Shown here: positions 48,466-63,508 of the stretch, in pieces
Numbering within the stretch: position 1 is the stretch's first letter
Layout: every line of letters begins with the position of its first letter
Source: an uncultured virus (IMG/VR IMGVR_UViG_3300031111_000236)
Taxonomy: Duplodnaviria > Heunggongvirae > Uroviricota > Caudoviricetes
Strand: one strand, 5' to 3'
Virus record (IMG/VR): IMGVR_UViG_3300031111_000236
Length of the DNA: 64,000 bases
Translations under genes and position numbers: made by a program
The notes under the pieces: generated by a model
Database searches by the model: none
Told to the model about the DNA's origin: nothing
Seen by the model: only the letters and a program-made list of their open reading frames with translations

Positions 48466-49053
48466 ATGCCTTGGACAAAAGATAGTGAGAGACATCGGCT
48501 CGCTCAGGCTGGTGTCTTCTCACAAACCTCATACGCACCGCAACAGGCCCCATACACTGATGACGCTTACCCTGTACAGCGTACTGTTAGTGAAGAAGAG
48601 ATGCTTATGCAGGGTGCTATGACTGGTTCGCAAGAGCTTTCCAGGGCTCTTGAAGAGAGAGACGGAGAGAGAATGACAGTGCGGGAACAGGCTCTCCGAG
48701 GTAGTCGAGCCATTGAGACTACTGCGGTATCAGTTGGGTCAACTGTTGTGCCTGGTTTTGATGTGCTCTGGGAGGGCACAGGTAAGATACCGCTTACTAA
48801 CCCTTGGCTGATGAAACAGCAGAGGGAATACCTCCAGAAGAGGATAGACCAAGGTTACGTTCGAGGTCTACAGCTCGGTATGTTTTCAGGTGGCGAGTTG
48901 GGACTCGTAGAGCACGGGGAGTACGAGGACGATATGCACTACATCCGTATCTACAAGGGACCGAAGAGTACTGAGGTTCGCAAGGAGTTTCGCAACAAGG
49001 ACCCTGTAAAGCTCGAAAGACAATTCGAAGAGTACATCAACCGAGAGCTTTAG
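48466..49053 (+). CDS. Hypothetical protein with RHG-type leader
   Basis: MPWTKDSERHRLAQAGVFSQTSYA. Confidence 0.7.
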   Translation: MPWTKDSERHRLAQAGVFSQTSYAPQQAPYTDDAYPVQRTVSEEEMLMQGAMTGSQELSRALEERDGERMTVREQALRGSRAIETTAVSVGSTVVPGFDVLWEGTGKIPLTNPWLMKQQREYLQKRIDQGYVRGLQLGMFSGGELGLVEHGEYEDDMHYIRIYKGPKSTEVRKEFRNKDPVKLERQFEEYINREL

Positions 49054-49148
49054 AGACCAGTGCTTTCTACGTATTGTCTTGGAAAACCAGTGCAACGCTG
49101 GACCTATTATAAGCTCGCTCACCAATATTCAAGCGGTGATGCGAAGAT

Positions 49149-50564
49149 ATGGTCACGAAAAAAGCAGAAGCATGGTTTGAAGTGGACACGAAAGGACTGC
49201 GAGCGATACAGGCGGGTAAGCCCCTGTTCTACATAGTTAGGGAACTTATTCAGAACGCCTTCGATGAAGACGTTACTGAGGTAATCCTGACTATAATGCA
49301 CGCCAAGGACAGGACGGTAATCTCGTGCGAGGACAACTCGCCCATCGGGTTCAGGGACCTGCGGGACGCATACACGATGTACAGGAACTGCTACAAGCGT
49401 CCCGACCCGACCAAGAGGGGACGGTTCGACGTTGGGGAGAAGCAAGCTATCTCCCTGGCGACGTGGGCTCAGATAGAGACCACAGTGGGGACTGTCACTT
49501 TCGACAACGAGGGAAGGCACGTGTCCGACGAGAAGAGAAAGGCTGGAAGTATGGTCACTCTTCACGTGGACATGACCAGGGCCGAGTACGAGGCGACTCT
49601 CGACTTCGTGAAGACCATTATAGTGCCTGACGGTATCAAGATGGTTCTGAACGGTGTCGCACTGCCCCACAAGGAGGCGAGAACCGAGTTCGAGACGATA
49701 CTCACAACTGAACTCCTCAAGGGCGATAGGCTGGTCAAGTCGAAGAGAAAGACCAAGGTCGTGGTCTATGAGGACGACGAGACTTGGCTCTACGAGATGG
49801 GCATCCCTGTCTGTGAGATAGAGTGTGCCTACTCTCTCGACGTGGACCAGCGTATCCCTCTTGGAGTGGACAGGGACAAAGTGTCGGGAGCCTACCTCCA
49901 GGACCTCTACGCAGAGGTTCTAAACCACACGTTCGATGATATCGACGAGGACACTGTGGGTGAGAGGTGGGTCCGAGAGGGCATGAGTGATGAGAGGGTC
50001 TCGGCAGAGGCTGTCGATAAGGTCATGACTACCCGATACGGCGAGAAGCGGTGCACCTACACGCCTGGAGACCCGCAAGCGAACGACAGGGCCATCATCG
50101 AGGGTTACACCCTTGTAAGGGGCGGCGAGCTAAGCAAGGATGAGTTCGATAACATCAAGAAGCACAACAAGGTGAGGTCGTCTCACGACCTTTTCGGACT
50201 TACACCAGGGAACGCCAAGGACGTGAAGCCGAACAAGAGCATGAGGACCGTGGAGGCTATTGCCAAGAAAATAGCCTGGGAGACGGAGCGCATCAGGATA
50301 GGTGTCAGGTTCGTCAACCTCCCGAAGGGTCACCCCGCATGGTTCGGTGGTAAAACCTTGACATTCAATGTCCAGGTACTCGGTAGGGGCTTCTTCACGA
50401 AGCCTGTGTGCGTCGATGTCATCGACCTCATCATCCACGAAGTGGCACACTACTACGGGATGCACACCGAGAGGGCGTATCTCGATGCCATCACTCGTAT
50501 CGGGGCCAAGCTCGCTCTGAAGGTTCGCAAGGACCCCAAGTTCTTCGATGTCGAGGTCCAGTAG
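49149..50564 (+). CDS. GHKL (HATPase) ATPase with C-terminal HEXXH zincin-like domain
   Basis: RELIQNAFD (N box), EDNS, GRFDVGEK; IIHEVAH. Confidence 0.75.
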   Translation: MVTKKAEAWFEVDTKGLRAIQAGKPLFYIVRELIQNAFDEDVTEVILTIMHAKDRTVISCEDNSPIGFRDLRDAYTMYRNCYKRPDPTKRGRFDVGEKQAISLATWAQIETTVGTVTFDNEGRHVSDEKRKAGSMVTLHVDMTRAEYEATLDFVKTIIVPDGIKMVLNGVALPHKEARTEFETILTTELLKGDRLVKSKRKTKVVVYEDDETWLYEMGIPVCEIECAYSLDVDQRIPLGVDRDKVSGAYLQDLYAEVLNHTFDDIDEDTVGERWVREGMSDERVSAEAVDKVMTTRYGEKRCTYTPGDPQANDRAIIEGYTLVRGGELSKDEFDNIKKHNKVRSSHDLFGLTPGNAKDVKPNKSMRTVEAIAKKIAWETERIRIGVRFVNLPKGHPAWFGGKTLTFNVQVLGRGFFTKPVCVDVIDLIIHEVAHYYGMHTERAYLDAITRIGAKLALKVRKDPKFFDVEVQ

Positions 50565-50576
50565 GACCTCGTTTTA

Positions 50577-50598
50577 TTTTTTTTTTTTTTTTTTTTTT
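50577..50598 (+). terminator. T22 tract, probable archaeal oligo-U terminator ahead of tRNA cluster 1
   Basis: 22 consecutive T after the GHKL stop; exact length could be a homopolymer error. Confidence 0.5.
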
Positions 50599-50640
50599 AT
50601 CTCGAAACCTTTATTAGGGACCCCACCAATCTCCCTGGAG

Positions 50641-50706
50641 ATGAACAGAGCAACTCTCTTAGCATCCAGTTCGGGACTATCATCGTTGTCCCTTCTTAGT
50701 CTGTAG
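50641..50706 (+). promoter_or_regulatory. Leader ORF MNRATLLASSSGLSSLSLLSL upstream of Leu/Ser tRNA cluster
   Basis: 14 of 20 non-start codons are Leu/Ser; all six Leu codons used; TTTATTA box about 30 nt upstream. Confidence 0.8.
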
Positions 50707-50805
50707 AAGGACTGGCTGGAGAGAGTTGGAGTATCATCGTGTGCTTTTCCCTGATGCGTCTTCCAAGAGGAGTCTCGCTGTTCTGCGGCTCTCTCCGTCG
50801 AAGAT

Positions 50806-50891
50806 GCACGGGTGGCTGAGTCAGGCTAAAGCGTTCGCCTTGAGAGCGTTTGACCCTCTTGGGTTTGCAGGTTCGAATCCTGTCCCGTGCG
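50806..50891 (+). tRNA. tRNA-Ser(TGA)
   Basis: GCACGGG/CCCGTGC acceptor, long variable arm, G73; outer anticodon stem mismatched. Confidence 0.8.
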
Positions 50892-50920
50892 CCTTTCCTT
50901 CTTACATACTATCATAGAGC

Positions 50921-51008
50921 GCAGGGGTGGTCGAGAGGTCGAAGACGGGGGATTCAAAATCCTCTACCATAGGTCCCGTCCCAGGTTCGAGTCCTGGTCC
51001 CTGCACCA
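50921..51008 (+). tRNA. tRNA-Leu(CAA)
   Basis: GGGGA-TTCAAAA-TCCTC; long variable region; encoded CCA. Confidence 0.9.
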
Positions 51009-51009
51009 C

Positions 51010-51092
51010 GGCAGAGTGTCCGAGCGGCGAAGGAGGGCGGCTTAAAACCGCCTACATAGGCCACGTCAGGGGTTCGAGTCCCCTCTCTGCCT
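51010..51092 (+). tRNA. tRNA-Leu(TAA)
   Basis: GGCGG-CTTAAAA-CCGCC; long variable region. Confidence 0.85.
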
Positions 51093-51103
51093 TCACAAGC
51101 AAC

Positions 51104-51190
51104 GGGGGAGTAGCCAAGTGGTCGAAGGCGGTGCGCTCAGAACGCACTACATAGGCAACGTCACAGGTTCAAATCCTGTCTCCCCTACCA
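51104..51190 (+). tRNA. tRNA-Leu(CAG)
   Basis: GTGCG-CTCAGAA-CGCAC; encoded CCA. Confidence 0.9.
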
Positions 51191-51196
51191 TTTCAT

Positions 51197-51285
51197 GGAG
51201 AGGTAGCCGAGCCTGGTCGAAGGCGGCAGGTCGAGGACCTGCTACATAGGCAACATCGGGGGTTCAAATCCCCCCCTCTCTACCA
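51197..51285 (+). tRNA. tRNA-Leu(GAG), C33
   Basis: GCAGG-TCGAGGA-CCTGC; encoded CCA. Confidence 0.85.
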
Positions 51286-51288
51286 TTT

Positions 51289-51370
51289 GCCAGGATGACC
51301 GAGCGGTAAGGTGGCGGTTTGCTAAGCCGTAGGGCCAGTGGCCCCGCAGGTTCAAATCCTGCTCCTGGCG
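51289..51370 (+). tRNA. tRNA-Ser(GCT)
   Basis: GCGGT-TTGCTAA-GCCGT; variable arm GGGCC/GGCCC; G73. Confidence 0.9.
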
Positions 51371-51510
51371 TTATCTTTTTATATTTCGTACTCCATCGCC
51401 TATCATGGTCAAAAGTATCTATCATTACAAGTCGTCCCGTGGTTGTAGTACTCGGTTCTAACGAGTACGGGCGGCTCAATTATGCCGCCACAACCAGAGG
51501 TGACAAGCGG

Positions 51511-51741
51511 ATGACGATAGACTACGACGAGATAGATTTTGATTGCCAGGGCAAGAACAGGAACTTCTACAGGTTTGACCCGAGACCTCGCAAGATGATA
51601 CGAAGGAAGAACCATCATCTAAACGACCCAGAGTACAACTACTGGAGAGGGTACTCTACTGCCAAGAACAAGAACCCGAGGTCGAACCATTGGAAGCTGA
51701 AGAACGCCGTCAGGAGGATGAGAAAGGCGAAGGGGCGGTAG
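51511..51741 (+). CDS. Small basic protein
   Basis: 76 aa, R/K/N-rich; GAGGTGA SD; T tract after stop. Confidence 0.6.
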   Translation: MTIDYDEIDFDCQGKNRNFYRFDPRPRKMIRRKNHHLNDPEYNYWRGYSTAKNKNPRSNHWKLKNAVRRMRKAKGR

Positions 51742-51903
51742 TTTTTTATACAATGTTAGACAATATAATCACATCACGCTTTCCTCCCCCATCCATACCA
51801 TACCAAGAGGCTGGAGCCGTCTTTTTTACTCTGGGCGGCTCCAGTCCAACCTTGTTTTCGTTGGTCCGAAACCTTTTTATATTTCAGGCTTTTTTGATTA
51901 TGT

Positions 51904-53355
51904 ATGAGCTACCGATATGAGACCAGAGTTGGGGTAGTCCAGAGCGATGTGACTACACATTTCCTACTCTCTCGTATGTGCCTTGGTGCTACCCGAGTGT
52001 TCAACTCTGCCTTATGGTACTCAAGACAGCAGTGGGAACAGGTGGGTAAGATTCCGACAGGCTACGACCTTGAGAAGGTGGTGAAAGACCTTTACTGGCA
52101 CAAGCAGATACCTGCCTCTGTATCTTGCTACACGGCGCAGGAGGTGGGTCGCTCTTACAAATCGTGGTTCGCACTCAAGAAGAAAGACCCGAAGGCAATG
52201 CCACCCATGTTCAGGAGGAAGGACTGCCTGTCGCCAATGACATACAGGCCAGGTACGTACAGTATCACAAGTGTGGACCCTCTGCACTCGAAAATAGACC
52301 TTGCACTTGGTCAAAAGTTTAAGTCTGACATCGGTTACCCGTACAAGAGATTGAGTGCGGATATAAGGTGGAACTCTCCATTACCAGAGGGGGACTACAC
52401 AATCGCCCTCTTGGAGGTTGTTCCGTCCGATAGGGATGTCTCACAGAATGACCACTTTGAAATTCATATTAAGGTTAAGTTAGAGGAGCGATGGCGTGAG
52501 GAGGGTCAGGTTATGTTCATAGACCTTGGTGTTGTCAATCCCATTGTCTCGATGACAGAGGCAGGGCGTGTAGACATTTTCAAGGGCGGCTCTATTTTGA
52601 GCAATATTAGATATTGGAACAGGGTGTTATCGCACTTGTCCGAGCGTGTTATGAAAGAGTCTAACAAAAAATACTCAAAGAAGATTAAGTGGGCCTACAA
52701 AAAGAGAAACGCTCAGATTAACCAGAAACTACATTCATTAGTAAATACTTTTGTTGAAGTATGCAAAGACGAAAACGTTAAGGAGGTGGTAGTTGGAGAC
52801 TTCAAAGGTATGAAGAAACAAGCAAGTGAGACGTGGAGACGTAACCCAAGCGAAAAAGACAAGTCCAGAATGAAGACAGAAGATAGTCCTGGCAGTAGTA
52901 AGGAGATGCAGAAGGTTATGCAATTTCCAGTACAGCGGATGGTCTCAATTCTGGAATACAAACTGGCAAGGGAAGGTATTCGATTAGTAACACAGGACGA
53001 GAGCGGTACGTCTACAGGCCGTTGCTTCGTCTGTGGTCATCGGTACACTACTGATAAGGCACGTGTGAAGCGAGGTCTTTTCAAGTGCGAGCACTGTAGG
53101 AACCTGGTCAATGCCGACATTAATGGTGTTGGCAATCAGCGTGCTCGTTACCTCGGTCTCGAAAGTACTAATGGCGTGCTTGATGAGGGTCTCTCAGTAT
53201 GGGAGTCGAACGTATGGCGTTGGTGTGATGAGAACAGATGGAAACTTGCTCACGTTGCGAGAGGCCATGTGACATTCAAAACCCCTGTAGGCTCTCGACA
53301 TATAAACTTTCCTAATAACCAGCAAGGTATCTCTGTCAAGGGTAACAACCCTTGA
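51904..53355 (+). CDS. tnpB: TnpB-family RNA-guided endonuclease (IS200/IS605-related), no adjacent transposase
   Basis: RVFNSAL helix, RuvC-I FIDLG, RuvC-II VVGDF, Zn finger CFVC...CEHC, RuvC-III NADING. Confidence 0.85.
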   Translation: MSYRYETRVGVVQSDVTTHFLLSRMCLGATRVFNSALWYSRQQWEQVGKIPTGYDLEKVVKDLYWHKQIPASVSCYTAQEVGRSYKSWFALKKKDPKAMPPMFRRKDCLSPMTYRPGTYSITSVDPLHSKIDLALGQKFKSDIGYPYKRLSADIRWNSPLPEGDYTIALLEVVPSDRDVSQNDHFEIHIKVKLEERWREEGQVMFIDLGVVNPIVSMTEAGRVDIFKGGSILSNIRYWNRVLSHLSERVMKESNKKYSKKIKWAYKKRNAQINQKLHSLVNTFVEVCKDENVKEVVVGDFKGMKKQASETWRRNPSEKDKSRMKTEDSPGSSKEMQKVMQFPVQRMVSILEYKLAREGIRLVTQDESGTSTGRCFVCGHRYTTDKARVKRGLFKCEHCRNLVNADINGVGNQRARYLGLESTNGVLDEGLSVWESNVWRWCDENRWKLAHVARGHVTFKTPVGSRHINFPNNQQGISVKGNNP

Positions 53356-53608
53356 GGAGTAGTAGCGGCACTACACCGCTCGTGGAGCGTTATGCGCTGG
53401 CCACAAATCTCAGCTTAATAAGCCCTCGCAATATACGTGAGTTGTGACGGAGGATGTAGGCAGTGGACCCAAGTAGAGTATCCTGTTGACGGGCGGACTC
53501 GCAATACACGTAGTTGTGGCGGAGGATGTAGGGATTCTCGGGTTGAAGGGCAAGGACCGACCCGCCGTTGGGAAAAATGGTATATACTTCTCAGTTCTAT
53601 GTACTCTC

Positions 53609-53944
53609 ATGCTCCCTATTGGACACTTCGCTCTTGGGTACTGCATCGTCATGGCTGTGCTCCTCTTGACACGGACCTATCGCTTCGTTCTTCGTGACGG
53701 GGCCTTAGCCGCTCTTGGAGGGCTTCTCGCCATGCTACCCGACGCTCCCTACGTCTTCTTGGGTGAGCACGCCTCGTGGCACGACAGCCCCATTATGAAC
53801 ATTTTCTTTTTTCATCAGTGGTTCGACGTGCTCTTGAGAGATGACTATCTCGTGTTCCCCGCTATCCTGATAGCTATCGCAGTCCTCTTGACAGGGGTGC
53901 TCTGGATGGTTGATAAGGACCACAGTAAGGTCATCGAGAAGTGA
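53609..53944 (+). CDS. Small membrane-bound metal-dependent hydrolase-like protein
   Basis: MLPIGH...MLPD...FFFH in TM helices; ATG 53609 downstream of TATATA. Confidence 0.55.
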   Translation: MLPIGHFALGYCIVMAVLLLTRTYRFVLRDGALAALGGLLAMLPDAPYVFLGEHASWHDSPIMNIFFFHQWFDVLLRDDYLVFPAILIAIAVLLTGVLWMVDKDHSKVIEK

Positions 53945-53993
53945 ACACGTAAACTTTTTATAGTACCGTGCCGATAGTCCTGTGGTTACTAAC

Positions 53994-54071
53994 ATGAACG
54001 TAATCCCAACCTTCACGGAAAGAGTCGATAGGTGGCAGGAGCGACCCTGCCGCCATCCGCAAGTACTCTAA
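53994..54071 (+). promoter_or_regulatory. Leader ORF MNVIPTFTERVDRWQERPCRHPQVL upstream of tRNA cluster 2
   Basis: 16 consecutive codons cover exactly the nine amino acids of cluster 2; TTTTTATA at 53955. Confidence 0.8.
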
Positions 54072-54089
54072 TTTTGAGAAGGAAGAGTT

Positions 54090-54164
54090 GGGAACATAGT
54101 GTAGCCTGGTTTATCACGGTGGTCTCCAAAACCACTTACATCGGTTCGAATCCGATTGTTCCCA
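54090..54164 (+). tRNA. tRNA-Trp(CCA), intron-less
   Basis: GTGGT-CTCCAAA-ACCAC. Confidence 0.9.
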
Positions 54165-54207
54165 CTCTATTTTCTCGAAATTTTTGTACCACGAGAAGCA
54201 ACAGAGT

Positions 54208-54281
54208 GGGCCTGTAGGGTAGCTTGGATATCCTGTTGGACTCCTAATCCATTGACAGCGGTTCAAATCCGCTCAGGTCCG
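54208..54281 (+). tRNA. tRNA-Arg(CCT)
   Basis: TTGGA-CTCCTAA-TCCAT. Confidence 0.9.
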
Positions 54282-54294
54282 TTACCAAGAGCAA

Positions 54295-54368
54295 GCTCCC
54301 GTAGTGTAATGGGAAAATCATCCTTGCCTTTCAAGCAAGGGAATCGAGTTCGAATCTCGGCGGGAGTA
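54295..54368 (+). tRNA. tRNA-Glu(TTC)
   Basis: CTTGC-CTTTCAA-GCAAG. Confidence 0.9.
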
Positions 54369-54369
54369 T

Positions 54370-54447
54370 GGGCGTGTATCCGAGCCTGGACAAGGTGCGG
54401 GTCTTCTAAACCCGTTTGCAGGGGTTCAAATCCCCTCACGCCCACCA
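54370..54447 (+). tRNA. tRNA-Arg(TCT)
   Basis: CGGGT-CTTCTAA-ACCCG; encoded CCA. Confidence 0.9.
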
Positions 54448-54458
54448 TCAGCAAGCAT

Positions 54459-54532
54459 GGGCGCATAGTCTAACCTGGATAGGACACCTGGCTACGGACC
54501 AGGCAATGGGAGTTCGAATCTCTCTGCGCTCA
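54459..54532 (+). tRNA. tRNA-Arg(ACG)
   Basis: CCTGG-CTACGGA-CCAGG. Confidence 0.9.
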
Positions 54533-54549
54533 CTAAACATAAGCAAAAT

Positions 54550-54787
54550 GTGGCGGTAGCCGTCGAACGTACCTCTGGTTCCTGACGAGGAACCAAGTCG
54601 GGCACAACAAGTAGGCGGAGCGATTAACCTCAAGTCCGAAGTATCTGGGCTGAAACAATGTGGTTGAAGTCCACCCCATGTATCTCGGTGGGTAGGTCAT
54701 GTGCATGACGATGTGCAGTGACCGATACAATCCAGGTATGAGGTCTCCGAGGGAGAAATAAAGTGGGTTAAATTCCCACCCGCCGCA
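54550..54787 (+). ncRNA. About 240-nt RNA with tRNA-like acceptor stem and T arm
   Basis: GTGGCGG/CCGCCGC-A acceptor; T arm GTGGG-TTAAATT-CCCAC; internal hairpins; sits in a tRNA slot of the array. Confidence 0.6.
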
Positions 54788-54791
54788 CTAT

Positions 54792-54866
54792 GGGGACGTG
54801 GTGTAGCTTGGACCAGCACCCCTGGTTTGGGACCAGGAAACCACAGTTCGAATCTGTGCGTCCCCA
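54792..54866 (+). tRNA. tRNA-Pro(TGG)
   Basis: CCTGG-TTTGGGA-CCAGG; G1:C72. Confidence 0.9.
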
Positions 54867-54890
54867 TTACCCCTCTTGGGGGTGAGTGAG

Positions 54891-55193
54891 ATGAGCAAGC
54901 AAAAACAAACGTCAGACGCAAACAAGGCAATCAAGAACACAGCGAAGGTTCACCTTGACATCAACCACGGTAGGCTTGATGCTGAAGTGGTAATCAACGG
55001 TGTTGGCGTTAAGTTCCTCCGTGAGATGGACGCAGACGCAGAGGTGAAGATGAACAAGGTGGTCGAGAGCTTGATGACTCTCGTCCCTACCCCGTCGTAC
55101 CCGACACCTGATGAGCCTGAAGTTTGGCGTGACCAAGAATCTACTAATGATACCGTGACCCCCACGGTATCTCCTATGGCGGGAGTGGTGTAG
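54891..55193 (+). CDS. Small hypothetical protein within tRNA array
   Basis: GGTGA SD; 3' end overlaps tRNA-His. Confidence 0.5.
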   Translation: MSKQKQTSDANKAIKNTAKVHLDINHGRLDAEVVINGVGVKFLREMDADAEVKMNKVVESLMTLVPTPSYPTPDEPEVWRDQESTNDTVTPTVSPMAGVV

Positions 55194-55250
55194 TCGGTAG
55201 CATCGGAGGTTGTGGGCCTCCAGGGTTGGGTTCGAGTCCCGACTCCCGCC
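55178..55250 (+). tRNA. tRNA-His(GTG) with encoded G-1
   Basis: GGAGG-TTGTGGG-CCTCC; G-1:C73. Confidence 0.9.
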
Positions 55251-55264
55251 CTCTTGAAACCACT

Positions 55265-55349
55265 GATAGGGTGGCCGAGCCAGGTAAGGCGATAGGTTGC
55301 AGACCTGTTGTCTTAGACATCGGGAGTTCAAATCTCCCCCCTATCTCCA
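55265..55349 (+). tRNA. tRNA-Cys(GCA) with long variable arm
   Basis: ATAGG-TTGCAGA-CCTGT; TGTC-TTA-GACA arm; U73 and CCA. Confidence 0.85.
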
Positions 55350-55476
55350 CTCGCACTCGCAACAGACACATGATTTCCAGTGGAAGTCGAGACCACACAC
55401 TGTTGCCACTGGAAACATAGCCAGTCAATTTACAGTGGCAGTGGTGTCACCACACTGTTTCCACTGTAGCAAGCAT

Positions 55477-55552
55477 GGGGCAGTAGTCAAGCCAGGTTAT
55501 TGACAACACCCTTACAAGGTGTAGGTCGGCGGTTCGAATCCGTCCTGCCCTA
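55477..55552 (+). tRNA. tRNA-Val(TAC)
   Basis: ACACC-CTTACAA-GGTGT. Confidence 0.9.
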
Positions 55553-55567
55553 TTTCCCATACGCATT

Positions 55568-55640
55568 GGCCCCTTGGTGTAAGTGGACAACATATCGGGC
55601 TTTGGACCCGATGCTCTTGGTTCGAATCCAAGAGGGGCTA
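55568..55640 (+). tRNA. tRNA-Gln(TTG)
   Basis: TCGGG-CTTTGGA-CCCGA. Confidence 0.9.
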
Positions 55641-55642
55641 CT

Positions 55643-55831
55643 ATGAAGTGCCAGTTCGTTGGCGGTGTCCACGTGGACAAACATCTGCCCAACCCCGAGG
55701 ACTATGAGTGCCATGAGGAGGCTACCCATACCCTTGTGGGTAATCACAAGCAGTGGCACTTCTGTCAGAAGCACTTTGAAGAGGCCAGTGACTTCAAGGA
55801 CTCTGCAAAGCACGAAACAGCAAGCATATAG
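55643..55831 (+). CDS. Small Cys/His protein within tRNA array
   Basis: 62 aa MKCQF...ECHEEAT...FCQKH filling the spacer between the two Gln tRNAs. Confidence 0.5.
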   Translation: MKCQFVGGVHVDKHLPNPEDYECHEEATHTLVGNHKQWHFCQKHFEEASDFKDSAKHETASI

Positions 55832-55901
55832 CCCCTTGGTGTAATCAGCAACATACCAGGCTCTGGACCTGGAGAAGGCGGGGCAGAACCGTCAGGGGCT
55901 G
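55830..55901 (+). tRNA. tRNA-Gln(CTG), atypical D and T loops
   Basis: A1:U72; CCAGG-CTCTGGA-CCTGG; T loop GGCAGAA. Confidence 0.75.
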
Positions 55902-55922
55902 TTAGACAATAAGCAACAAGAC

Positions 55923-55995
55923 GCTCCCGTAGTGTAGTGGTCAACCATTTGAGGTTCTCACCCTCAAGCCTGGGGTTCGAATCCCCACGGGAGTA
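55923..55995 (+). tRNA. tRNA-Glu(CTC)
   Basis: TGAGG-TTCTCAC-CCTCA. Confidence 0.9.
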
Positions 55996-56002
55996 CTCAT
56001 AC

Positions 56003-56074
56003 GCCTCCGTAGTGTAGCGGTCATCATCTTGGTTTGTCAGGCCAGGGACTTGGGTTCAAATCCCAACGGGGGCG
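56003..56074 (+). tRNA. tRNA-Asp(GTC)
   Basis: TTGGT-TTGTCAG-GCCAG; G73; followed by T tract. Confidence 0.9.
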
Positions 56075-56118
56075 TTCTTTTTCTCAAAGTTTTTATACCT
56101 CAAGAGCTTACTCATTAT

Positions 56119-56296
56119 TGGCGAAAAAGTGGTCCCTACCGTGGATAGATAGCCTGTCAATCAGCGGTGGTGGAACATCGCAATCCCAAAGCCATCTGGG
56201 ATAGACCTCAGCGGCGGAGCGTGGTCACATCAGATACACCCGTGACCACAGAGTCCGTCGATGGGACCGCCGAGCGGTGATACGCCGCTCTCGCCA
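56119..56296 (+). ncRNA. Stand-alone structured RNA, about 180 nt
   Basis: Own TTTTATA box (56091); TGGCGA/TCGCCA closing stem; GGTCCC/GGGACC, GTGGTCAC/GTGACCAC and GAGCGG/CCGCTC helices; T tract after. Confidence 0.65.
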
Positions 56297-56368
56297 CTTT
56301 TAATATTATAAGTTTTTGGGTACACCTTATATACTTCTGGTATGATTGTCTTATATCAAGGTGGCTTT

Positions 56369-57412
56369 ATGACCAAGAAAAAGGGCTTTCGAGGCAATCC
56401 CCAGACACACAGGCTCAATGCACACGGAATACATAACGAGAGGGCTTTTGCCTCCTCTTCACCAAGCATGATAAACGTGCAAGCTCGTGCTGTCACACCC
56501 ATACAAAAGAGCCACAGTTACTCAGACAGGTCAGAACCCTCTGGTAAGGTCAACAACGGTGGCTACGTGGACGAGTACCTTGTGTTGGTCGAGAAGAAGA
56601 CGGTGGAAGAGGCTACAATCAAGCCTGGTGACGAGATAGAGATGACCTTCGCAGGGGCTCCCAATGATTTCCCGAGGCCCTGGACTCTCGTTAGTGCCAG
56701 GGACGAGTACTCTACGGTATCCTACAGCAACACCCCAACCGTAGTAGTGCGTGCGGCCAATGGCAAGGAGATGACTCTCAAGAACGCACAGGTGTATAGC
56801 CCACACAAGCCCGAGAAGTCGTTCGGGTATTGGGTCAAGCCCAAGGGCCTCCCCCCGAGATACGAAAAGTACGTGACCATCCAGGACGAGGTAACTCTCC
56901 TCGAACTCATAAAGAAAGAGGACCAAGGCGGTATCAACGAGTACATAGAGAAGATGTACGAGAGGTCTGGAATAGACAAGAAGAAATACCCGCTCAACTT
57001 CTTCAGGGTGGATGTCATTAACGGTCTCTGGTACAAGGGACTCGTGAAGCAAAAGAACAGTCGCATGGCTATCTCCAAGCATGGTGAGAAGGTTCTCAAG
57101 AGTGGGGCTTTCGGCTCTGCTCAGATGCGTGATTGGGAGAAGAACAAGGTTGTTAAGATGGACGATGAGGACATCGAGATATTCGATGCCAAAACCCAGA
57201 AAATGATACGCAAGTACATGAAGAAGGGTAACCTCTACTATATGTTCGGCTTCCTGGTCTTCGAAGATGACAAGTCTCTACGTATCGTCGGAGAGAACGA
57301 CTCTTATGATGATTACACTATCAGGATGAGAACCAAGGACTTTGATAAGGTGTACGATAGACTGGAGAACGCAGACGGTGGCGTTTACGCCACAACCGAA
57401 GGCTGGAAGTGA
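56369..57412 (+). CDS. Multi-domain hypothetical protein with RHG-type leader
   Basis: GFRGNPQTHRLNAHGIHNERAFA. Confidence 0.75.
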   Translation: MTKKKGFRGNPQTHRLNAHGIHNERAFASSSPSMINVQARAVTPIQKSHSYSDRSEPSGKVNNGGYVDEYLVLVEKKTVEEATIKPGDEIEMTFAGAPNDFPRPWTLVSARDEYSTVSYSNTPTVVVRAANGKEMTLKNAQVYSPHKPEKSFGYWVKPKGLPPRYEKYVTIQDEVTLLELIKKEDQGGINEYIEKMYERSGIDKKKYPLNFFRVDVINGLWYKGLVKQKNSRMAISKHGEKVLKSGAFGSAQMRDWEKNKVVKMDDEDIEIFDAKTQKMIRKYMKKGNLYYMFGFLVFEDDKSLRIVGENDSYDDYTIRMRTKDFDKVYDRLENADGGVYATTEGWK

Positions 57413-57416
57413 TGAT

Positions 57417-57680
57417 ATGGCGGACTTCTTTCAAACAGTGGGACTTGGAATTGCTGTAGGTATCTCCGTAGTACTCGGCTTGATACTCGGGTGGGCCATG
57501 TACTTTAACGCTAAGAAGTGCGGCAGGAGCACGGTCTGGGGCATAGCCTACATCATATTCTCGCCAGTGATGACACTCTTGAGCTTCCTGGGGTTCCCAG
57601 GAGCATGGGCTTTCGCCTACCTTCCCTGGCTCATCATAGTCGGATACCTCTTGACAGGGGCCAACAAGTGCTCGACGTGA
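57417..57680 (+). CDS. Small membrane protein
   Basis: Three hydrophobic segments. Confidence 0.6.
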   Translation: MADFFQTVGLGIAVGISVVLGLILGWAMYFNAKKCGRSTVWGIAYIIFSPVMTLLSFLGFPGAWAFAYLPWLIIVGYLLTGANKCST

Positions 57681-57684
57681 GACG

Positions 57685-58071
57685 ATGTACAAGGCCGCCC
57701 TCCTTGGTCTAATTACTCTCCTGGTACTCGCACCATTGTGTATACTTGTAATTGAAGAGTTCAGGGACCAGCCAGACATAGAGGAGACGACTACACTCGA
57801 TTGGTGGTCTGTAGTTCACTTCGGCTCAGGCGTGGTGCTCTTTCTGGTCCTATCAAGGATTGGATTTTCGCCGAGAGCGAATATCATAGTCACTACTGTG
57901 CTTGGCTGTCTGTTTGAGGTGGTCGAGCACCTCCTCATTGAACCTCTTGCCATGTTTGGTGGTAGAGAGCTGGTTTTCAATATAGGGGCAGATATGCTCC
58001 TCGTCTATTTGGGTGCTATCACGGCGATGTGGATATGGTGTCGCAAGACAGAGTGCCCTCTTGATGTTTAG
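57685..58071 (+). CDS. Membrane protein, possible intramembrane metal-dependent hydrolase
   Basis: DWWSVVHF..G, FEVVE, E...N..AD in TM helices. Confidence 0.55.
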   Translation: MYKAALLGLITLLVLAPLCILVIEEFRDQPDIEETTTLDWWSVVHFGSGVVLFLVLSRIGFSPRANIIVTTVLGCLFEVVEHLLIEPLAMFGGRELVFNIGADMLLVYLGAITAMWIWCRKTECPLDV

Positions 58072-59045
58072 TGAGAGTACTCTGAATAGGTTGAGTAGGC
58101 AAGTGCACCCTGTATCAAGAGGACTATCTCATCGACGACCCTCTTGTACTTCTTGATATCAATGCAGTGGATACCGCCAACGTTGACGTGGCCGCCTCCA
58201 CCGTATCTCTTCATGATGTCACCGATGTTTGGGACTGTGCGCTTCTGGTCCTTCTTGAATATGTTCATGCCAACGTTCATCCTCACGAACTCGGGAGAGT
58301 CGCCGTAGAAGCTCACGCTGATGAGATACTCCACCTCGGGGTACTCAGCGTATATCTCGTACAGGCTATCGGAGAACCCTGGTATGTCGCATACGTCAAG
58401 GACGGCTACACCATGCTCCCTGATATCGAGCCTCCTCTTGGTGATGTCCTTGAACGACTTTTGCTTGTCCCTCTTGTCGAAGAACCGCCTCTTGGCCCAA
58501 TCGCTGTTAGCTATATCGCTAAAGCTCTTGCCTCTCATAAGCTCTGATATGACCCAACGCCTGTAGTCGTCGTCCTCTCTTCTATTTCCGCTCCTGAGCG
58601 TGATGGAGATGATACCAGCGGTGCTCGGGTTGAGTACCTCCTCTGGTGTCAGGTCCCCGCTGTCTATCTTGTTGGTGTACTTCAGGATAGACTGGAACCT
58701 CCTGTTGCACGGTAACTTGGAGGCGTACATCCTGTATATGACGGCGGCACAGCTCGGCTCAAGGAACCAGTGCCAGACACCGATACTGTCGTCGTTAGAG
58801 TCGATGTTAGGCTTGTTCGAAATGTGGTGGTCGGCCCAAAGCCCTGCTACTTTCGGTTGCGGGAGGTCGCAGACGATATCCCTCTTGGTCGTGTAGACCT
58901 GCCCTGCTTTCATATCGTTCGGGGTAGTGAAAATAATGTTCTCCACAGGTATCTTGAATATGGTAGCCATGAAGAACCCACTTATCACCCCGTCGAGGTC
59001 GTCGTGTGTAATTATTCTGTCGTATTTGCACATAGGCATCACCAC
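58068..59045 (-). CDS. DHH/DHHA1 phosphoesterase (NrnA/nanoRNase-like)
   Basis: THDDLDG, CDLP, ADHH, GGGGHVNVGG. Confidence 0.85.
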   Translation of the reverse strand: MVMPMCKYDRIITHDDLDGVISGFFMATIFKIPVENIIFTTPNDMKAGQVYTTKRDIVCDLPQPKVAGLWADHHISNKPNIDSNDDSIGVWHWFLEPSCAAVIYRMYASKLPCNRRFQSILKYTNKIDSGDLTPEEVLNPSTAGIISITLRSGNRREDDDYRRWVISELMRGKSFSDIANSDWAKRRFFDKRDKQKSFKDITKRRLDIREHGVAVLDVCDIPGFSDSLYEIYAEYPEVEYLISVSFYGDSPEFVRMNVGMNIFKKDQKRTVPNIGDIMKRYGGGGHVNVGGIHCIDIKKYKRVVDEIVLLIQGALAYSTYSEYSH

Positions 59046-59169
59046 TGATATTGGTGTCAGGAGTTATAATGGGTCGGCGGGAAGCTCGTGTTTTGAAGAC
59101 AATAGAAGTGCACCGCCCTTCCCAAAACCTTATTTACTTCGACCCTCTCTTGATGCTTGATGATAGTCG

Positions 59170-59682
59170 ATGACGTGGAAATGGGAAAAGCTGGAGGCAC
59201 AACTCCTGGCAGTCCGAGCCATAAAGGACTACGCAGTTGTGTCTGGGGGCCTCGCATGGCATTTAATGTCGCCGCCCCACGAAGAGAACAAGAAGGTCCA
59301 CGACCACTCTGATGTGGACTTATTCATAATCCCAGAACACTTCGCCACCGCTATTGAAATTCTGAAGAGCATGGACTTCCACCGATGGTGGACCAGGTAC
59401 GATAACATCACTCCCAACTTCTACAGGTATGGTAAGACCACTACCTGGACCAACGGCAAGAGGGTGAAAACCGAGCTTGACCTATTCGTCCGTAAGATGC
59501 CATACCGCATGGTAGGTGAGTTCAAGGTCATAACACCAGAGGCTCTATTACCTCTGTATCAGGAGTGCCACTCAAGTTCGAGATGTGTAGCCGTACAGTC
59601 GGCAATACAGCTCATGAAGAACGGGATAGACCCTCTTGGGCGAATTGAATTAGTGGAGGGGATACCATGCCGACACTCTTGA
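59170..59682 (+). CDS. Pol-beta superfamily nucleotidyltransferase
   Basis: VSGGLAW...HSDVDLF...ELDLF. Confidence 0.7.
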   Translation: MTWKWEKLEAQLLAVRAIKDYAVVSGGLAWHLMSPPHEENKKVHDHSDVDLFIIPEHFATAIEILKSMDFHRWWTRYDNITPNFYRYGKTTTWTNGKRVKTELDLFVRKMPYRMVGEFKVITPEALLPLYQECHSSSRCVAVQSAIQLMKNGIDPLGRIELVEGIPCRHS

Positions 59683-60635
59683 GCAGGAAGGACTTTCGAG
59701 AGGGAGTCTTCAGAAGGGACGGCGGGGTATGCGTTGTTTGCGGTGAGAAGGCCGCAGATGCCCATCACATCGTTGAGCGTGCCTTATGGAATGATGAGGG
59801 CTACTACATGGAGAACGGGGCCTCAGTGTGCACTAAGCACCATCTCCTTGCCGAGAGCAATCACATACCTCCCTGTGTCGTGAGGAGGTACGCTGGTATC
59901 AAGGATACTGTGGTCCCGAAGAGCTTCGACCCTACTCTTGAGTACGATAAGTGGGGCAAGCCGTTCGTGAACCCGACCAGGGACGACATCAAGTACCCTT
60001 CCACCTTCTATCTGAACTTTTCACCAAGTCAGTATGATGAGGAGGGGAAGGCTGAGAACGTAGACAACAAGGACTTCGCCAGGGTCCCTCTTGTAGCCAC
60101 TATCAAGATGGACGGGGCCTGTTGTAAGCTGACACCAGATTACGTGGCCGCTCGTAATGGTTCGCACGCCACCAAGAAGAGCTTCGATATGCTCAAGGCT
60201 ATGCACCCGAGTTTCAAGTACCTGATACCACAGAACGTGAGGGTATTTGCAGAGTGGCTTTACAAGAAACACTCGATACATTACACGGATGACATGGCAC
60301 TCGGCTCCCTCTTGCAGGTTTTCGGAGTTTACTACGTCGATAAGAGGATATGGGGGTCATGGGACGAGGTAGAGGCAATGGCCGCTACTCTTGGGTTTCC
60401 CACCGTTCCTGTTATTTCGAAGTTCGAGGTCGATACCGAGTGGGAGTTCGCCAACAGGGTATCTAAGATGGCCGAGGACATCGTTGCACAGGGTCACGAG
60501 GGTCTTGTGGTCAGGAACGCCTTCGCCTTTCATTACGGGCAGTTCGGACGCTTCATGGGCAAGTACGTTCGTGCTAATCATATTCAGATAAAGGACGAAG
60601 ACGAGCGTACTATCATACGGAACGAGACTGTTTGA
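59667..60635 (+). CDS. HNH-type domain fused to ATP-dependent RNA ligase
   Basis: CVVC...AHHI...NGASVCTKHH; ligase motifs KMDG, FAEW, FGV, EGLVVR, KYVR. Confidence 0.8.
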   Translation: MPTLLSRKDFREGVFRRDGGVCVVCGEKAADAHHIVERALWNDEGYYMENGASVCTKHHLLAESNHIPPCVVRRYAGIKDTVVPKSFDPTLEYDKWGKPFVNPTRDDIKYPSTFYLNFSPSQYDEEGKAENVDNKDFARVPLVATIKMDGACCKLTPDYVAARNGSHATKKSFDMLKAMHPSFKYLIPQNVRVFAEWLYKKHSIHYTDDMALGSLLQVFGVYYVDKRIWGSWDEVEAMAATLGFPTVPVISKFEVDTEWEFANRVSKMAEDIVAQGHEGLVVRNAFAFHYGQFGRFMGKYVRANHIQIKDEDERTIIRNETV

Positions 60636-60689
60636 GCATCGTCCCACAACCCTTAAATATCATCGAGACATAATCAAGAGGGAGCAGAG

Positions 60690-60773
60690 ATGACTCACTT
60701 TACCTATATCGGGACCGCTATAACGGGCGGAACATACGCCAAAACCGCAATTAAGAGCGGTAATGGGCAGTAG
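60690..60773 (+). promoter_or_regulatory. Leader ORF MTHFTYIGTAITGGTYAKTAIKSGNGQ upstream of tRNA cluster 3
   Basis: 23 of 26 non-start codons are amino acids of cluster 3; CTTAAATA at 60652; GGGAG SD. Confidence 0.8.
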
Positions 60774-60884
60774 AATCCCGATGAAGGTGAAGTTCTTGTA
60801 GAAATTTTTTCTGCGTCGCTGAAATTTTTCAAAGAGGGCCTCGCCCTCTCGGTGTTCTTCTTCCATTAGTCGCTCGTAGAGATT

Positions 60885-60959
60885 GGACCCGTGGCCAAGT
60901 TAGGGACGGCAGTGGGCTTTTAACCCACCAAATCCAGGGTTCGAATCCCTGCGGGTCCG
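60885..60959 (+). tRNA. tRNA-Lys(TTT)
   Basis: GTGGG-CTTTTAA-CCCAC. Confidence 0.9.
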
Positions 60960-60970
60960 CTCTATTTTGT

Positions 60971-61044
60971 GGGTCCATAGCTCAGTTAGGTTGAGCAGGG
61001 GACTCTTAATCCCAAGGTCGGGGGTTCAAATCCCTCTGGACCCA
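60971..61044 (+). tRNA. tRNA-Lys(CTT)
   Basis: GGGGA-CTCTTAA-TCCCA. Confidence 0.9.
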
Positions 61045-61138
61045 TTGACCCGAGGTTTACGTCGCAGGGCTGTATCGCAGGTTGCGACGAGGATGAGGTG
61101 GCGACATCCTTCACTCACCTGCGTCGATACGCAACCAT

Positions 61139-61211
61139 GTCACTGTGGCCAAACGGTGAAGGCACTCGGCTGTTAACCGAGAGATTGCAGGTTCGAATCC
61201 TGTCGGTGACG
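61139..61211 (+). tRNA. tRNA-Asn(GTT)
   Basis: CTCGG-CTGTTAA-CCGAG. Confidence 0.9.
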
Positions 61212-61226
61212 TTCAATCATACGCAA

Positions 61227-61333
61227 GCACGGGTGGCCAAGTTGGTAAGGCACTCATCAGGGTGGTGCAAGTCCACGTACAAAATAATCAGCACTGTTGA
61301 GAAGGACCGTGGGTTCAAGTCCCACCCCGTGCG
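61227..61333 (+). ncRNA. tRNA-like RNA with the anticodon loop replaced by a larger structured insert
   Basis: Perfect acceptor, D and T arms; about 39 nt where a 7-nt anticodon loop should be. Confidence 0.7.
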
Positions 61334-61350
61334 TTCAATCGCAACACAAT

Positions 61351-61429
61351 GGGAGTATAGCATAGCCTGGGATTGCGCCAGAGTGAAGTCTTGGTCATTG
61401 CGGGAGTTCAAATCTCTCTGCTCCCACCA
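61351..61429 (+). tRNA. tRNA-Phe(GAA), atypical anticodon arm
   Basis: CCAGA-GTGAAGT-CTTGG; encoded CCA. Confidence 0.75.
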
Positions 61430-61433
61430 TCAT

Positions 61434-61507
61434 GGGCTCGTAAGTCAGTTAGGGAGACTACCTCTCCTGCAAAGAGGAAGCCGAGGGTTCAATTCCCTCC
61501 GAGTCCA
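61434..61507 (+). tRNA. tRNA-Ala(TGC), C33
   Basis: G3:U70; CCTCT-CCTGCAA-AGAGG. Confidence 0.9.
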
Positions 61508-61513
61508 CTATAT

Positions 61514-61587
61514 GCCACCGTAGCTAAACTGGATAAGGCAGTCGCCTTGTAAGCGACAGATTGGGGGTTCGAGTCCCTTCGGTGGCT
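61514..61587 (+). tRNA. tRNA-Thr(TGT)
   Basis: GTCGC-CTTGTAA-GCGAC; U73. Confidence 0.9.
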
Positions 61588-61601
61588 CTTACAAACGCAA
61601 C

Positions 61602-61672
61602 CTGCTCATGGTGTAGTGGTAGCACGGGTGGCTGTAGACCTCCAAGCGGGAGTTCGACTCTCTCTGGGCAGA
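61602..61672 (+). tRNA. tRNA-Tyr(GTA), archaeal/eukaryal type
   Basis: C1:G72, short variable loop, GGTGG-CTGTAGA-CCTCC. Confidence 0.9.
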
Positions 61673-61677
61673 TTCAC

Positions 61678-61751
61678 GGGCTGTTAGCCAAGCTGGTAAG
61701 GCGTTCGGCTCATAACCGAAAGACTCGGGGGTTCGAGTCCCTCACGGCCCA
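61678..61751 (+). tRNA. tRNA(CAT), probably Ile2 rather than Met
   Basis: TTCGG-CTCATAA-CCGAA; GGGC acceptor start like tRNA-Ile(GAT); ATA codon present in the cluster leader. Confidence 0.8.
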
Positions 61752-61764
61752 TTAGATAAGCAAT

Positions 61765-61837
61765 GCTGGCGTGGCTCAGGCAGTAGAGCGTCGCTCTGGT
61801 AAGGCGAAGGTCGTGGGTGCAAATCCCATCGTCAGCT
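61765..61837 (+). tRNA. tRNA-Thr(GGT), atypical T loop
   Basis: TCGCT-CTGGTAA-GGCGA; T loop TGCAAAT. Confidence 0.85.
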
Positions 61838-61840
61838 TTC

Positions 61841-61867
61841 CAAGTGATATCAAGTGATATCAAGTGA
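61841..61867 (+). repeat. Tandem 10-bp repeat CAAGTGATAT x2.7
   Basis: Direct reading of the spacer. Confidence 0.8.
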
Positions 61868-61873
61868 ATCCAA

Positions 61874-61948
61874 GGGCGTATGGCGCAGTGGTAGCGCACT
61901 CGCCTGATAAGCGAGAGGCCGTGAGTTCAAGCCTCACTACGCCCACCA
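61874..61948 (+). tRNA. tRNA-Ile(GAT)
   Basis: CTCGC-CTGATAA-GCGAG; encoded CCA. Confidence 0.9.
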
Positions 61949-61949
61949 T

Positions 61950-62024
61950 GCGAGAGTGGTGTTCAACGGTTCAGCATATCTGGCTTCCAACCAGACGGTC
62001 AGGGTTCGACTCCCTGCTCTCGCA
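61950..62024 (+). tRNA. tRNA-Gly(TCC)
   Basis: TCTGG-CTTCCAA-CCAGA; A73. Confidence 0.9.
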
Positions 62025-62034
62025 CTACAGGAGC

Positions 62035-62223
62035 GTGGTACAATCGGTCTACTGCCCAAGATGCCAGAACAAGATGCGCCGAGTGTTCGACTCGACACAG
62101 ATATGCGACCACTGCCGAACGAGGTGGTCCATAGACGAGCTGAAGATGCCTACCTTGAAGTCCTTTCGTGACAGAATAGACTTCAGGGACATAGAGGAGG
62201 AGTGGGTGTGGAATCCAACATAA
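62035..62223 (+). CDS. Small Zn-ribbon protein within tRNA array
   Basis: CPRC...CDHC; AGGAG before GTG; fills the spacer between the two Gly tRNAs. Confidence 0.55.
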   Translation: MVQSVYCPRCQNKMRRVFDSTQICDHCRTRWSIDELKMPTLKSFRDRIDFRDIEEEWVWNPT

Positions 62224-63433: not shown

Positions 63434-63508
63434 ATTGTTACTTATTGTCTTACTACGACGAACAGTTCGTCCGAAACTTTAAATAGTTCGCCGTGCGTTT
63501 GAGATTCG

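Follow-up and report, generated by a model that had tools for sequence, protein, structure and literature searches.

Viruses that carry tRNA genes raise the question of how these genes are expressed, and to what end. The uncultured virus record IMGVR_UViG_3300031111_000236 in IMG/VR gives it a concrete form: in a 64,000-nucleotide stretch of this DNA (here called the window, which belongs to a 184,795-bp contig), three blocks of tRNA genes lie on the + strand, and the 135 bases ahead of block 2, our region of interest, hold a TATA box followed by a 25-codon open reading frame (ORF) spelled largely in the amino acids of the block itself. What would such a mini-ORF do in front of 13 tRNA genes? 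Our preferred answer, to which we assign a probability of roughly 55%, is that the block 2 leader is a translated gauge of tRNA supply, a decoding-speed sensor that would gate the tRNA operon behind it.

A leader ORF that names the tRNAs of its own block

The window holds 30 tRNAs by ARAGORN count, and a further tRNA of block 2 (55830-55901) was found by Rfam alone (41.5 bits), with an anticodon loop read as CTG (Gln). The 20 amino acids are partitioned among the three blocks with no overlap, so that each block has an amino acid set to which the ORF ahead of it can be compared (Table 1). An earlier note on this DNA, made from the letters alone, had claimed for the block 2 leader an unbroken run of 16 codons that draws on just the nine amino acids of the block, each of them included, and this run is indeed codons 9 to 24 of the ORF: GAA AGA GTC GAT AGG TGG CAG GAG CGA CCC TGC CGC CAT CCG CAA GTA, or ERVDRWQERPCRHPQV. 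Over the entire ORF, 18 of 25 residues come from the nine. Codons are almost never reused, with 15 of 16 distinct in the sensor stretch and 23 of 24 distinct after the ATG in the whole ORF. For example, GAA and GAG match the two Glu tRNAs, CAA and CAG the two Gln tRNAs, and AGA, AGG, CGA, and CGC the three Arg tRNAs. The claim that codon choice mirrors the downstream tRNAs also held, with 12 block 2 tRNAs called by ARAGORN and the 13th by Rfam, in the composition that had been described. By standard wobble, each of the 13 is predicted to read at least one leader codon. A GTG at 53982 was considered as the start of the ORF and rejected because it lies just 19 nt past the TATA box.

Table 1. Coordinates of the leader elements, tRNA blocks, and HGTV-1 ORFs discussed in the text (window numbering unless another record is named)
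Feature	Position	Strand	Details
Block 2 leader mini-ORF, MNVIPTFTERVDRWQERPCRHPQVL	53994-54071	+	25 codons plus TAA, by ORF calling; ATG 53994, stop TAA 54069-54071
Sensor stretch (putative)	54018-54065	+	16 consecutive codons; exactly the nine amino acids of block 2
TATA box of block 2 promoter, TTTTTATA	53955-53962	+	3' end 31 nt ahead of ATG
5' arm of leader hairpin, TCCCAACCTTC	54004-54014	+	codons 4-7; predicted by folding
Apex hairpin	54031-54054	+	GGTGGCAGG (54031) / CCTGCCGCC (54046), over sensor codons; apex written GGUGGCAGG/CCUGCCGCC
Switch segment (candidate)	54070-54093	+	just past stop; holds T4 54072-54075; last 4 nt are tRNA-Trp nt 1-4
tRNA-Trp (CCA), first gene of block 2	54090-54165	+	ARAGORN, Rfam
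tRNA-Trp trailer	54166-54190	+	T4 (54170-54173) and the block's only internal T5 (54181-54185); complementary to 54070-54089
Rest of block 2, start	from 54207	+	Arg-CCT, Glu-TTC, Arg-TCT, Arg-ACG, 244-nt tRNA-like element, Pro
Rest of block 2, continued		+	105-codon ORF, His, Cys, Val, Gln-TTG, 62-codon ORF
Rest of block 2, end	to 56075	+	Gln-CTG (55830-55901), Glu-CTC, Asp; then T5 56078-56082
Block 1 leader, MNRATLLASSSGLSSLSLLSL	50641-50706	+	rank 1 of 589 for its own set; all six Leu codons used
Block 3 leader, MTHFTYIGTAITGGTYAKTAIKSGNGQ	60690-60773	+	rank 1 of 589 for its own set; 19-residue run, next longest 13
Block 1 tRNAs	50806-51371	+	Ser, Leu x4, Ser
Block 2 tRNAs	54090-56075	+	Trp, Arg x3, Glu x2, Pro, His, Cys, Val, Gln x2, Asp; ARAGORN 12 plus Rfam 13th
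Block 3 tRNAs	60885-62296	+	Lys x2, Asn, Phe, Ala, Thr x2, Tyr, CAT tRNA (Met/Ile2), Ile, Gly x2
HGTV-1 leader ORF, MTSRCSIQSSQISWSQISTF	NC_021328 48691-48753 (L002 7692-7754)	-	28 nt past TATA box; in unannotated tRNA-Lys/tRNA-Gln gap
Second HGTV-1 ORF, MKSKTTTTGTRL	NC_021328 49179-49217 (L002 8180-8218)	-	unannotated; codons ACT, ACA, ACG

Statistics of the codon match

In a six-frame translation of all 64 kb, the 16-residue run of the block 2 leader is the longest that can be built from its nine-letter set, followed by runs of 15, 14, and 13. An independent-codon model predicts 7.3e-5 such runs in the 300 nt upstream of the block on the right strand, and the probability that 16 draws include all nine amino acids is 0.064. 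Ranked by the fraction of residues in its set, among the ATG-started ORFs of 15 to 40 codons in the window, the block 2 leader comes 3rd of 589; the two ORFs above it are the D/E-rich tails of real genes. This ranking marks the limit of a single-locus statistic, and the pattern across blocks is the stronger argument. Blocks 1 and 3 each have a leader of their own, and a leader-by-block matrix is dominated by its diagonal, with residues belonging to blocks 1, 2, and 3 numbering 14, 1, and 6 in leader 1, 1, 18, and 6 in leader 2, and 1, 2, and 24 in leader 3. The remaining frames of the leader DNA have in-set scores of only 0.26 to 0.41. The match is thus far above chance, and it is confined to one frame and one strand.

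The choice among synonymous codons carries a second signal. When synonymous codons were redrawn from the codon usage of 31 long window ORFs, 51.8 distinct codons were expected in the three leaders pooled, compared to the 61 observed (P = 5e-5). Taken singly, the block 3 leader (23 of 26 distinct versus 18.1 expected, P = 0.0004) and the block 2 leader (23 of 24 versus 19.9, P = 0.026) were more diverse than expected, and the block 1 leader was not significantly so (15 of 20 versus 13.8, P = 0.29). Such diversity fits the sampling of tRNA species rather than the encoding of a functional peptide.

An archaeal-type promoter and a probable single transcription unit

Because the TATA box of block 2 ends 31 nt before the ATG, the transcript is predicted to start about 6 to 9 nt upstream of the ATG. 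The corresponding spacings for the leaders of blocks 1 and 3 are 24 and 30 nt. The window contains 34 copies of the motif YTTWWATA (10.1 expected), a count that none of 100 shuffles reached, and nearly all of these sites are intergenic. Many have their 3' end 22 to 26 nt ahead of a gene's ATG, a spacing that implies leaderless mRNAs, as far as sequence can tell; at other genes the motif lies 30 to 35 nt ahead of the ATG and is accompanied by an AGGTGA-like Shine-Dalgarno motif. No further YTTWWATA was found on the + strand from 53962 to 56090, and none lies inside the tRNA blocks. With a single TATA box, a lone internal T5 tract, and an end at the T5 of 56078-56082, the 2.1-kb block 2 therefore looks like one transcription unit that opens with the mini-ORF.

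Several independent signs bear on the host. Between 50400 and 62500, neither sigma-70-like sites (12 versus 9.3 expected) nor bacterial-type terminators were enriched. The tRNA-Tyr of the window is 71 nt long, with a short variable arm and a C1-G72 pair, which we take to be the archaeal/eukaryal identity set; in HGTV-1, a cultured haloarchaeal virus, it is 74 nt, and at two other loci (L008 and L029) it is 85 and 88 nt. For the RNA ligase whose gene precedes block 3, the top hit in the phage database comes from HGTV-1 (38.7% identity). One sign points away from an archaeal host, a tRNA-Arg (54459-54533, + strand) with anticodon ACG, and so with A34, in a set otherwise built on G34 or U34; this anticodon in tRNA-Arg is typical of bacteria. 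On balance the element is probably an archaeal virus, and both the TATA spacing and the independent host signs are those of an archaeal-type unit with a leaderless or short-leader start. Most window proteins match no Pfam or PHROG family, 54 of 58 ORFs lie on one strand (ORFs of at least 100 codons, overlaps removed), and the only sequencing run found to contain the sequence, a DNA run that may be its source, is labelled marine sediment metagenome.

Similar leaders in HGTV-1

HGTV-1 (NC_021328) has its tRNA genes at 42 to 53 kb. A 2026 paper on this virus calls the function of its 34 tRNA genes unknown, and a term search of its text for leader, promoter, attenuat-, peptide, and transcriptom- came back empty (PMC13532342). 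The ORF MTSRCSIQSSQISWSQISTF is followed by tRNAs for Gln, Trp, Ser, Ile, Ser, Gln, and Ile, and then Cys, Ser, and Arg. Its 13-residue run of I, Q, S, and W is the longest in the 56 kb examined (the next has 8), and it extends to 16 residues when C and R are added. The ORF ends in a T5 tract, after which comes a second copy of the conserved HGTV-1 promoter, 24 nt before tRNA-Gln. A second ORF, MKSKTTTTGTRL, sits in an 11-bp hairpin (z = -6.19) ahead of Thr-TGT, Thr-CGT, Thr-GGT, and Lys; its run statistic, taken alone, is weak. The combination of a tiny ORF upstream of a tRNA block, the block's own amino acids, and structured RNA was found at the three window blocks and at two HGTV-1 groups. 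Run statistics, the two sister leaders in the window, and the like design in HGTV-1 together support the identification of the block 2 ORF as a leader, which the earlier note had proposed.

Searches for closer relatives returned little. The region 53400-56200 had no blastn match among 50,697 phage records, and two flanking proteins had 0 relatives in IMG/VR. Using RNA-ligase alignments, 41 IMG/VR loci and 26 metagenome loci were fetched, and ARAGORN was run on 69 loci plus the window; large tRNA arrays appeared only in HGTV-1 and contig L008, and the closest RNA-ligase relatives (at most 53% identity) had no adjacent tRNA block. The gene ahead of block 1 encodes a GHKL-type ATPase of a widespread kind, for which no match exceeded 49% identity, and it is therefore useless for tracing synteny. 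Two large window proteins compared to the phage records gave no match in one case and a weak hit in the other. The HGTV-1 promoter consensus turned up in three other IMG/VR contigs, none with a tRNA array, and 6 of 10 IMG/VR records searched whole had at least one tRNA match. At locus L029, MCQEFQHY before Trp-Gln-Tyr was a weak candidate and was not counted as a leader.

Folding of the leader RNA

For the RNA from 53988 to 54093, the predicted fold is a single long hairpin (-38.1 kcal/mol; z = -4.12, matched by 0 of 200 shuffles), in which the 5' arm (54004-54030) spans codons 4 to 12 and the 3' arm (54055-54093) contains the stop codon, the U4 tract, and nt 1 to 4 of tRNA-Trp. The folds of the block 3 and block 1 leaders have z values of -5.60 (0 of 200 shuffles as good) and -2.55 (4 of 200), and in all three window leaders the beginning of the ORF supplies the 5' arm, with the 3' arm at or beyond the stop. 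With the two HGTV-1 leaders included, 5 of 5 have an AUG that is close to the predicted 5' end, or forms it, and that belongs to the 5' arm of a hairpin whose 3' arm falls late in the ORF or just past its stop. A U tract of 3 to 6 residues lies within about 12 nt of the hairpin in the five leaders (for block 2, inside the 3' arm), which is a weak point because short U tracts are common.

The features that the earlier note had described were all found at the positions it gave. The pairing of TCCCAACCTTC (54004-54014) with GAAGAGTTGGGA (54082-54093) is the optimal duplex, at -16.7 kcal/mol with 4 of 2,000 shuffles equal, and its second strand does overlap the 5' acceptor strand of tRNA-Trp, covering nt 1 to 4. 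The internal hairpin over the sensing codons is present as well, and it is kept in every fold that leaves the apex unmasked. T tracts lie where they had been placed, with T4 at 54072 and 54170 and T5 at 54181.

A second partner for 54070-54089 had been missed in that note. This is the tRNA-Trp trailer at 54166-54183, which pairs with it at -14.2 kcal/mol (33 of 2,000 shuffles as good; P = 0.017, uncorrected). In folding calculations, the free full-length RNA favors the trailer helix together with the tRNA-Trp cloverleaf (-70.7 kcal/mol), and RNA that ends before the trailer folds into the leader hairpin (-54.9 kcal/mol). When a 30-nt footprint was masked at each of three sites along the sensor stretch, 54070-54089 became available to the trailer; a footprint over the stop codon blocked both pairings. 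In block 1, a like pairing is predicted between the stop-codon region and the first tRNA's trailer (66 of 2,000 shuffles as good; P = 0.033, uncorrected), and in block 3 this region has no significant pairing of that kind (522 of 2,000).

Stop signals between leader and tRNAs are clearest in block 3, where a T6 (60805-60810) and a T5 (60825-60829), plus a GC hairpin with a T-rich tail that counts as one hairpin-plus-T site, separate the leader from the first tRNA. Archaeal termination uses oligo-T tracts and is not known to need hairpins.

A proposed mechanism and its alternatives

The ORF, its codon match, the position of its promoter, and the competing pairings can be read directly in the DNA. 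Translation of the mini-ORF, an effect in cis on the block, the sign of that effect, and an output at the level of termination or processing are inferred. Under the preferred reading, the transcript of the 13-tRNA block would start a few bases before the AUG of the 25-codon mini-ORF, and a pioneer ribosome would read 16 codons that call on the tRNA species encoded downstream. Because the ORF names the amino acids of its own block with diversified codons, its reading speed would have to depend on the supply of those tRNAs, which is the only selective reason we see for such a spelling. Ribosome speed would then pick the partner of the post-stop segment at 54070-54093. One partner is the start of the ORF, giving the whole-ORF hairpin that would also hold nt 1 to 4 of tRNA-Trp. 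The alternative partner is the T-rich trailer of that tRNA, with the only internal T5 of the block. The choice may set the extent to which the block is transcribed or matured, with slow decoding leading to more read-through or maturation and more tRNA. We favor this negative feedback because it would be useful to the virus when host tRNAs run short.

A number of observations weigh against this proposal. Leader codons GTC and CCC require four-way wobble by U34, and tRNA-Arg(ACG) would need inosine in place of A34, formed by deamination, to read CGA and CGC, a modification and decoding mode not known from archaea. Block 2 lacks a clear terminator between its leader ORF and tRNA-Trp, with a T4 only in a hairpin arm and the T5 past tRNA-Trp, and a consensus scan found no hairpin-plus-T site at 53950-54210. 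The geometry fits either sign of regulation: the trailer helix could hide a T tract from termination or cleavage, or it could act as a terminator hairpin before it, with helix and cloverleaf just as well making up a hairpin ahead of U5. The P values for trailer pairing (0.017 and 0.033) are uncorrected for multiple looks, and the switch of 54070-54089 between two partners, a product of modeled folds, is therefore treated as a hypothesis. The searches for relatives described above found none with a homologous leader in which covariation could be traced. Finally, a matched leader occurs at only 2 of about 13 tRNA groups in HGTV-1, where most groups have a promoter directly at the tRNA; a jumbo-phage control record has none before its Thr x4 or its Glu/Arg x3 group, and a 32-tRNA contig has no obvious one. 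We therefore regard the design as real but not universal.

The main alternative for the output builds on the earlier note, in which leader pairing competes with folding of the first tRNA. The leader would then act only on maturation of that tRNA: the 5' arm would hold the 5' acceptor strand of tRNA-Trp and its RNase P site until a ribosome on the leader frees them. The competition with tRNA-Trp folding that this requires stands up in part, since the helix 54004-54009:54088-54093 covers nt 1 to 4 of the tRNA and is nearly as stable as the cloverleaf. With tRNA-Trp present, forcing the helix gives -53.5 kcal/mol versus a minimum free energy (MFE) of -54.9, so that the cloverleaf is favored by just 1.4 kcal/mol, and the basal helix has a pair probability of about 0.24. 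As a regulatory output we doubt it, because a gauge that samples 13 tRNAs would be expected to govern the whole set, not the first alone, and the leaders of blocks 1 and 3 have no pairing into their own first tRNA. Full-length RNA prefers the cloverleaf with the trailer helix, and real tRNAs are further stabilized by tertiary contacts. Maturation of tRNA-Trp as the sole target is therefore unlikely. Quite unlikely, too, is a mini-ORF that is translated without being a graded sensor, where passage of a pioneer ribosome licenses or protects the nascent tRNA transcript, for example against 5' decay or the factor-dependent termination of RNA that goes untranslated, and the hairpin later shuts the AUG. 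The AUG does lie near the 5' end within the 5' arm in all five leaders, and an untranslated transcript would fold into a hairpin beside a T tract; any ORF would serve this purpose, however, which leaves both the own-block spelling and the synonymous diversity unexplained.

Reading of the triplets by something other than a ribosome is very unlikely. In such a scheme the stretch would go untranslated and its in-frame triplets would pair directly with the anticodons of uncharged or charged tRNAs, like a multi-specifier T-box, which accounts for the complementarity of every triplet to an anticodon encoded downstream. The triplets are nevertheless contiguous and in a single frame, with an ATG near the predicted transcript start and a closing stop codon in 5 of 5 cases, and a hairpin encloses a large part of the stretch; Rfam models detected neither a T-box nor any other leader family at E <= 1 in 49000-64000. 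Chance or local base composition, for which one could cite the same-set runs of 13 to 15 residues elsewhere in the window and the third place of the block 2 ORF by in-set fraction, is scarcely credible as the source of the match. It would have to account for where the ORF lies, for its strand and frame, and for the presence of all nine amino acids, as well as for two sister leaders that each rank first of 589 and for the HGTV-1 case. Other frames of the leader DNA score 0.26 to 0.41, and the joint statistics already contradict chance.

Other features of the window

Additional structures were noted among the tRNA genes. Between tRNA-Arg(ACG) and tRNA-Pro of block 2 is a structured RNA of 244 nt (54547-54790, + strand; MFE -90.5 kcal/mol, z = -3.69) closed by an 8-bp acceptor-like stem beside a T-arm-like hairpin (GUGGG UUAAAUU CCCAC). 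It gave no ARAGORN call with introns allowed, no transfer-messenger RNA call, and no Rfam match. With introns allowed, ARAGORN reports an extra tRNA at 61227-61333 (+ strand) with a 35-nt intron at the unusual position 32/33; we doubt its label of Asn(GTT), and the intron would fit an archaeal host. Two small + strand ORFs lie inside block 2, at 54876-55193 (105 codons) and 55643-55831 (62 codons, Cys/His-rich), and both would be cotranscribed with the tRNAs if the block is one unit. Repeats mark two + strand spacers: the 126-nt Cys/Val spacer (55350-55475) has recurring CCACTGG/CAGTGG motifs, and the Thr-GGT/Ile spacer contains short direct repeats at 61838-61873, CAAGTGATAT twice and then CAAGTGAAT.

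Outside the blocks, at the end of the gene upstream of the block 1 leader (50552-50598, + strand), come an 8-bp hairpin, TTTTA, and then an unusually long run of 22 T. A TnpB/IS605 OrfB-like gene (51904-53355, + strand; Pfam OrfB_IS605 plus Cas12f1-like TNB) separates blocks 1 and 2, and its protein had no close relative in species genomes. At 32081-37340 (+ strand), two MoxR/CbbQ-like AAA_5 ATPase genes flank an ORF of 237 amino acids with no known family (33643-34356), and downstream of the pair is a 640-amino-acid protein with a weak, subthreshold VWA match. Such genes are unusual cargo for a virus.

Relation to known regulatory systems

If the proposal is true, viruses would produce their tRNA sets as the need arises, for instance upon depletion or cleavage of host tRNAs. 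Leader-peptide sensing would extend from amino acid supply to tRNA supply, and from bacteria to the archaeal transcription machinery, and this would be the first ribosome-mediated attenuation described for tRNA genes. More tentatively, archaeal viruses may carry a class of near-leaderless mini-ORF sensors that sample every tRNA of the operon behind them and so tune the virus's own tRNA output to decoding speed. Since the same design is found in a cultured pair, HGTV-1 and Halogranum roseipondis, direct testing is possible. A literature search that was thin on subscription journals found no account of leader ORFs before tRNA genes, and a cmscan of 49000-64000 at E <= 1 found no curated Rfam leader family.

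Among known systems, the block 2 element would work most like the multivalent leader-peptide attenuators of enterobacterial amino acid operons. In these, thrL senses Thr and Ile, and the ilvGMEDA and ilvBN leaders sense Leu, Val, and Ile. As in thrL and ilv, a short same-strand ORF lies between a promoter (TATA box at 53955-53962) and the genes that would be regulated (from tRNA-Trp at 54090), its codons name the product of the operon, several species would be sensed, and the ORF is embedded in RNA predicted to form competing pairings. Unlike thrL and ilv, the window leader precedes tRNAs rather than biosynthetic enzymes, and its putative sensor covers nine amino acids and 13 tRNA species with almost no repeated codon, versus runs of a single codon. 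It also has an archaeal-type promoter and a predicted near-leaderless AUG, and no hairpin-plus-U terminator was found between the ORF and the first gene of block 2. The pheM leader of Escherichia coli pheST, which carries Phe codons, is similar in aiming leader-peptide control at the translation apparatus instead of biosynthesis; it differs in that it senses one amino acid and controls a synthetase via a classical terminator.

T-box riboswitches resemble the proposed gauge in having a leader that senses the state of tRNAs and acts on genes related to translation, but they bind tRNA directly, without translation, on a conserved scaffold that had no Rfam match in 49000-64000. A closer parallel in layout comes from mycobacteria, where leaderless polycysteine short ORFs are reported to act as Cys-responsive attenuators (10.1101/834739). 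These are bacterial, respond to one amino acid, and have protein-coding targets, whereas what they have in common with the block 2 leader, if its predicted transcript start is correct, is a short sensor ORF at the 5' end of the transcript that forms the first cistron of its operon (10.1101/834739).

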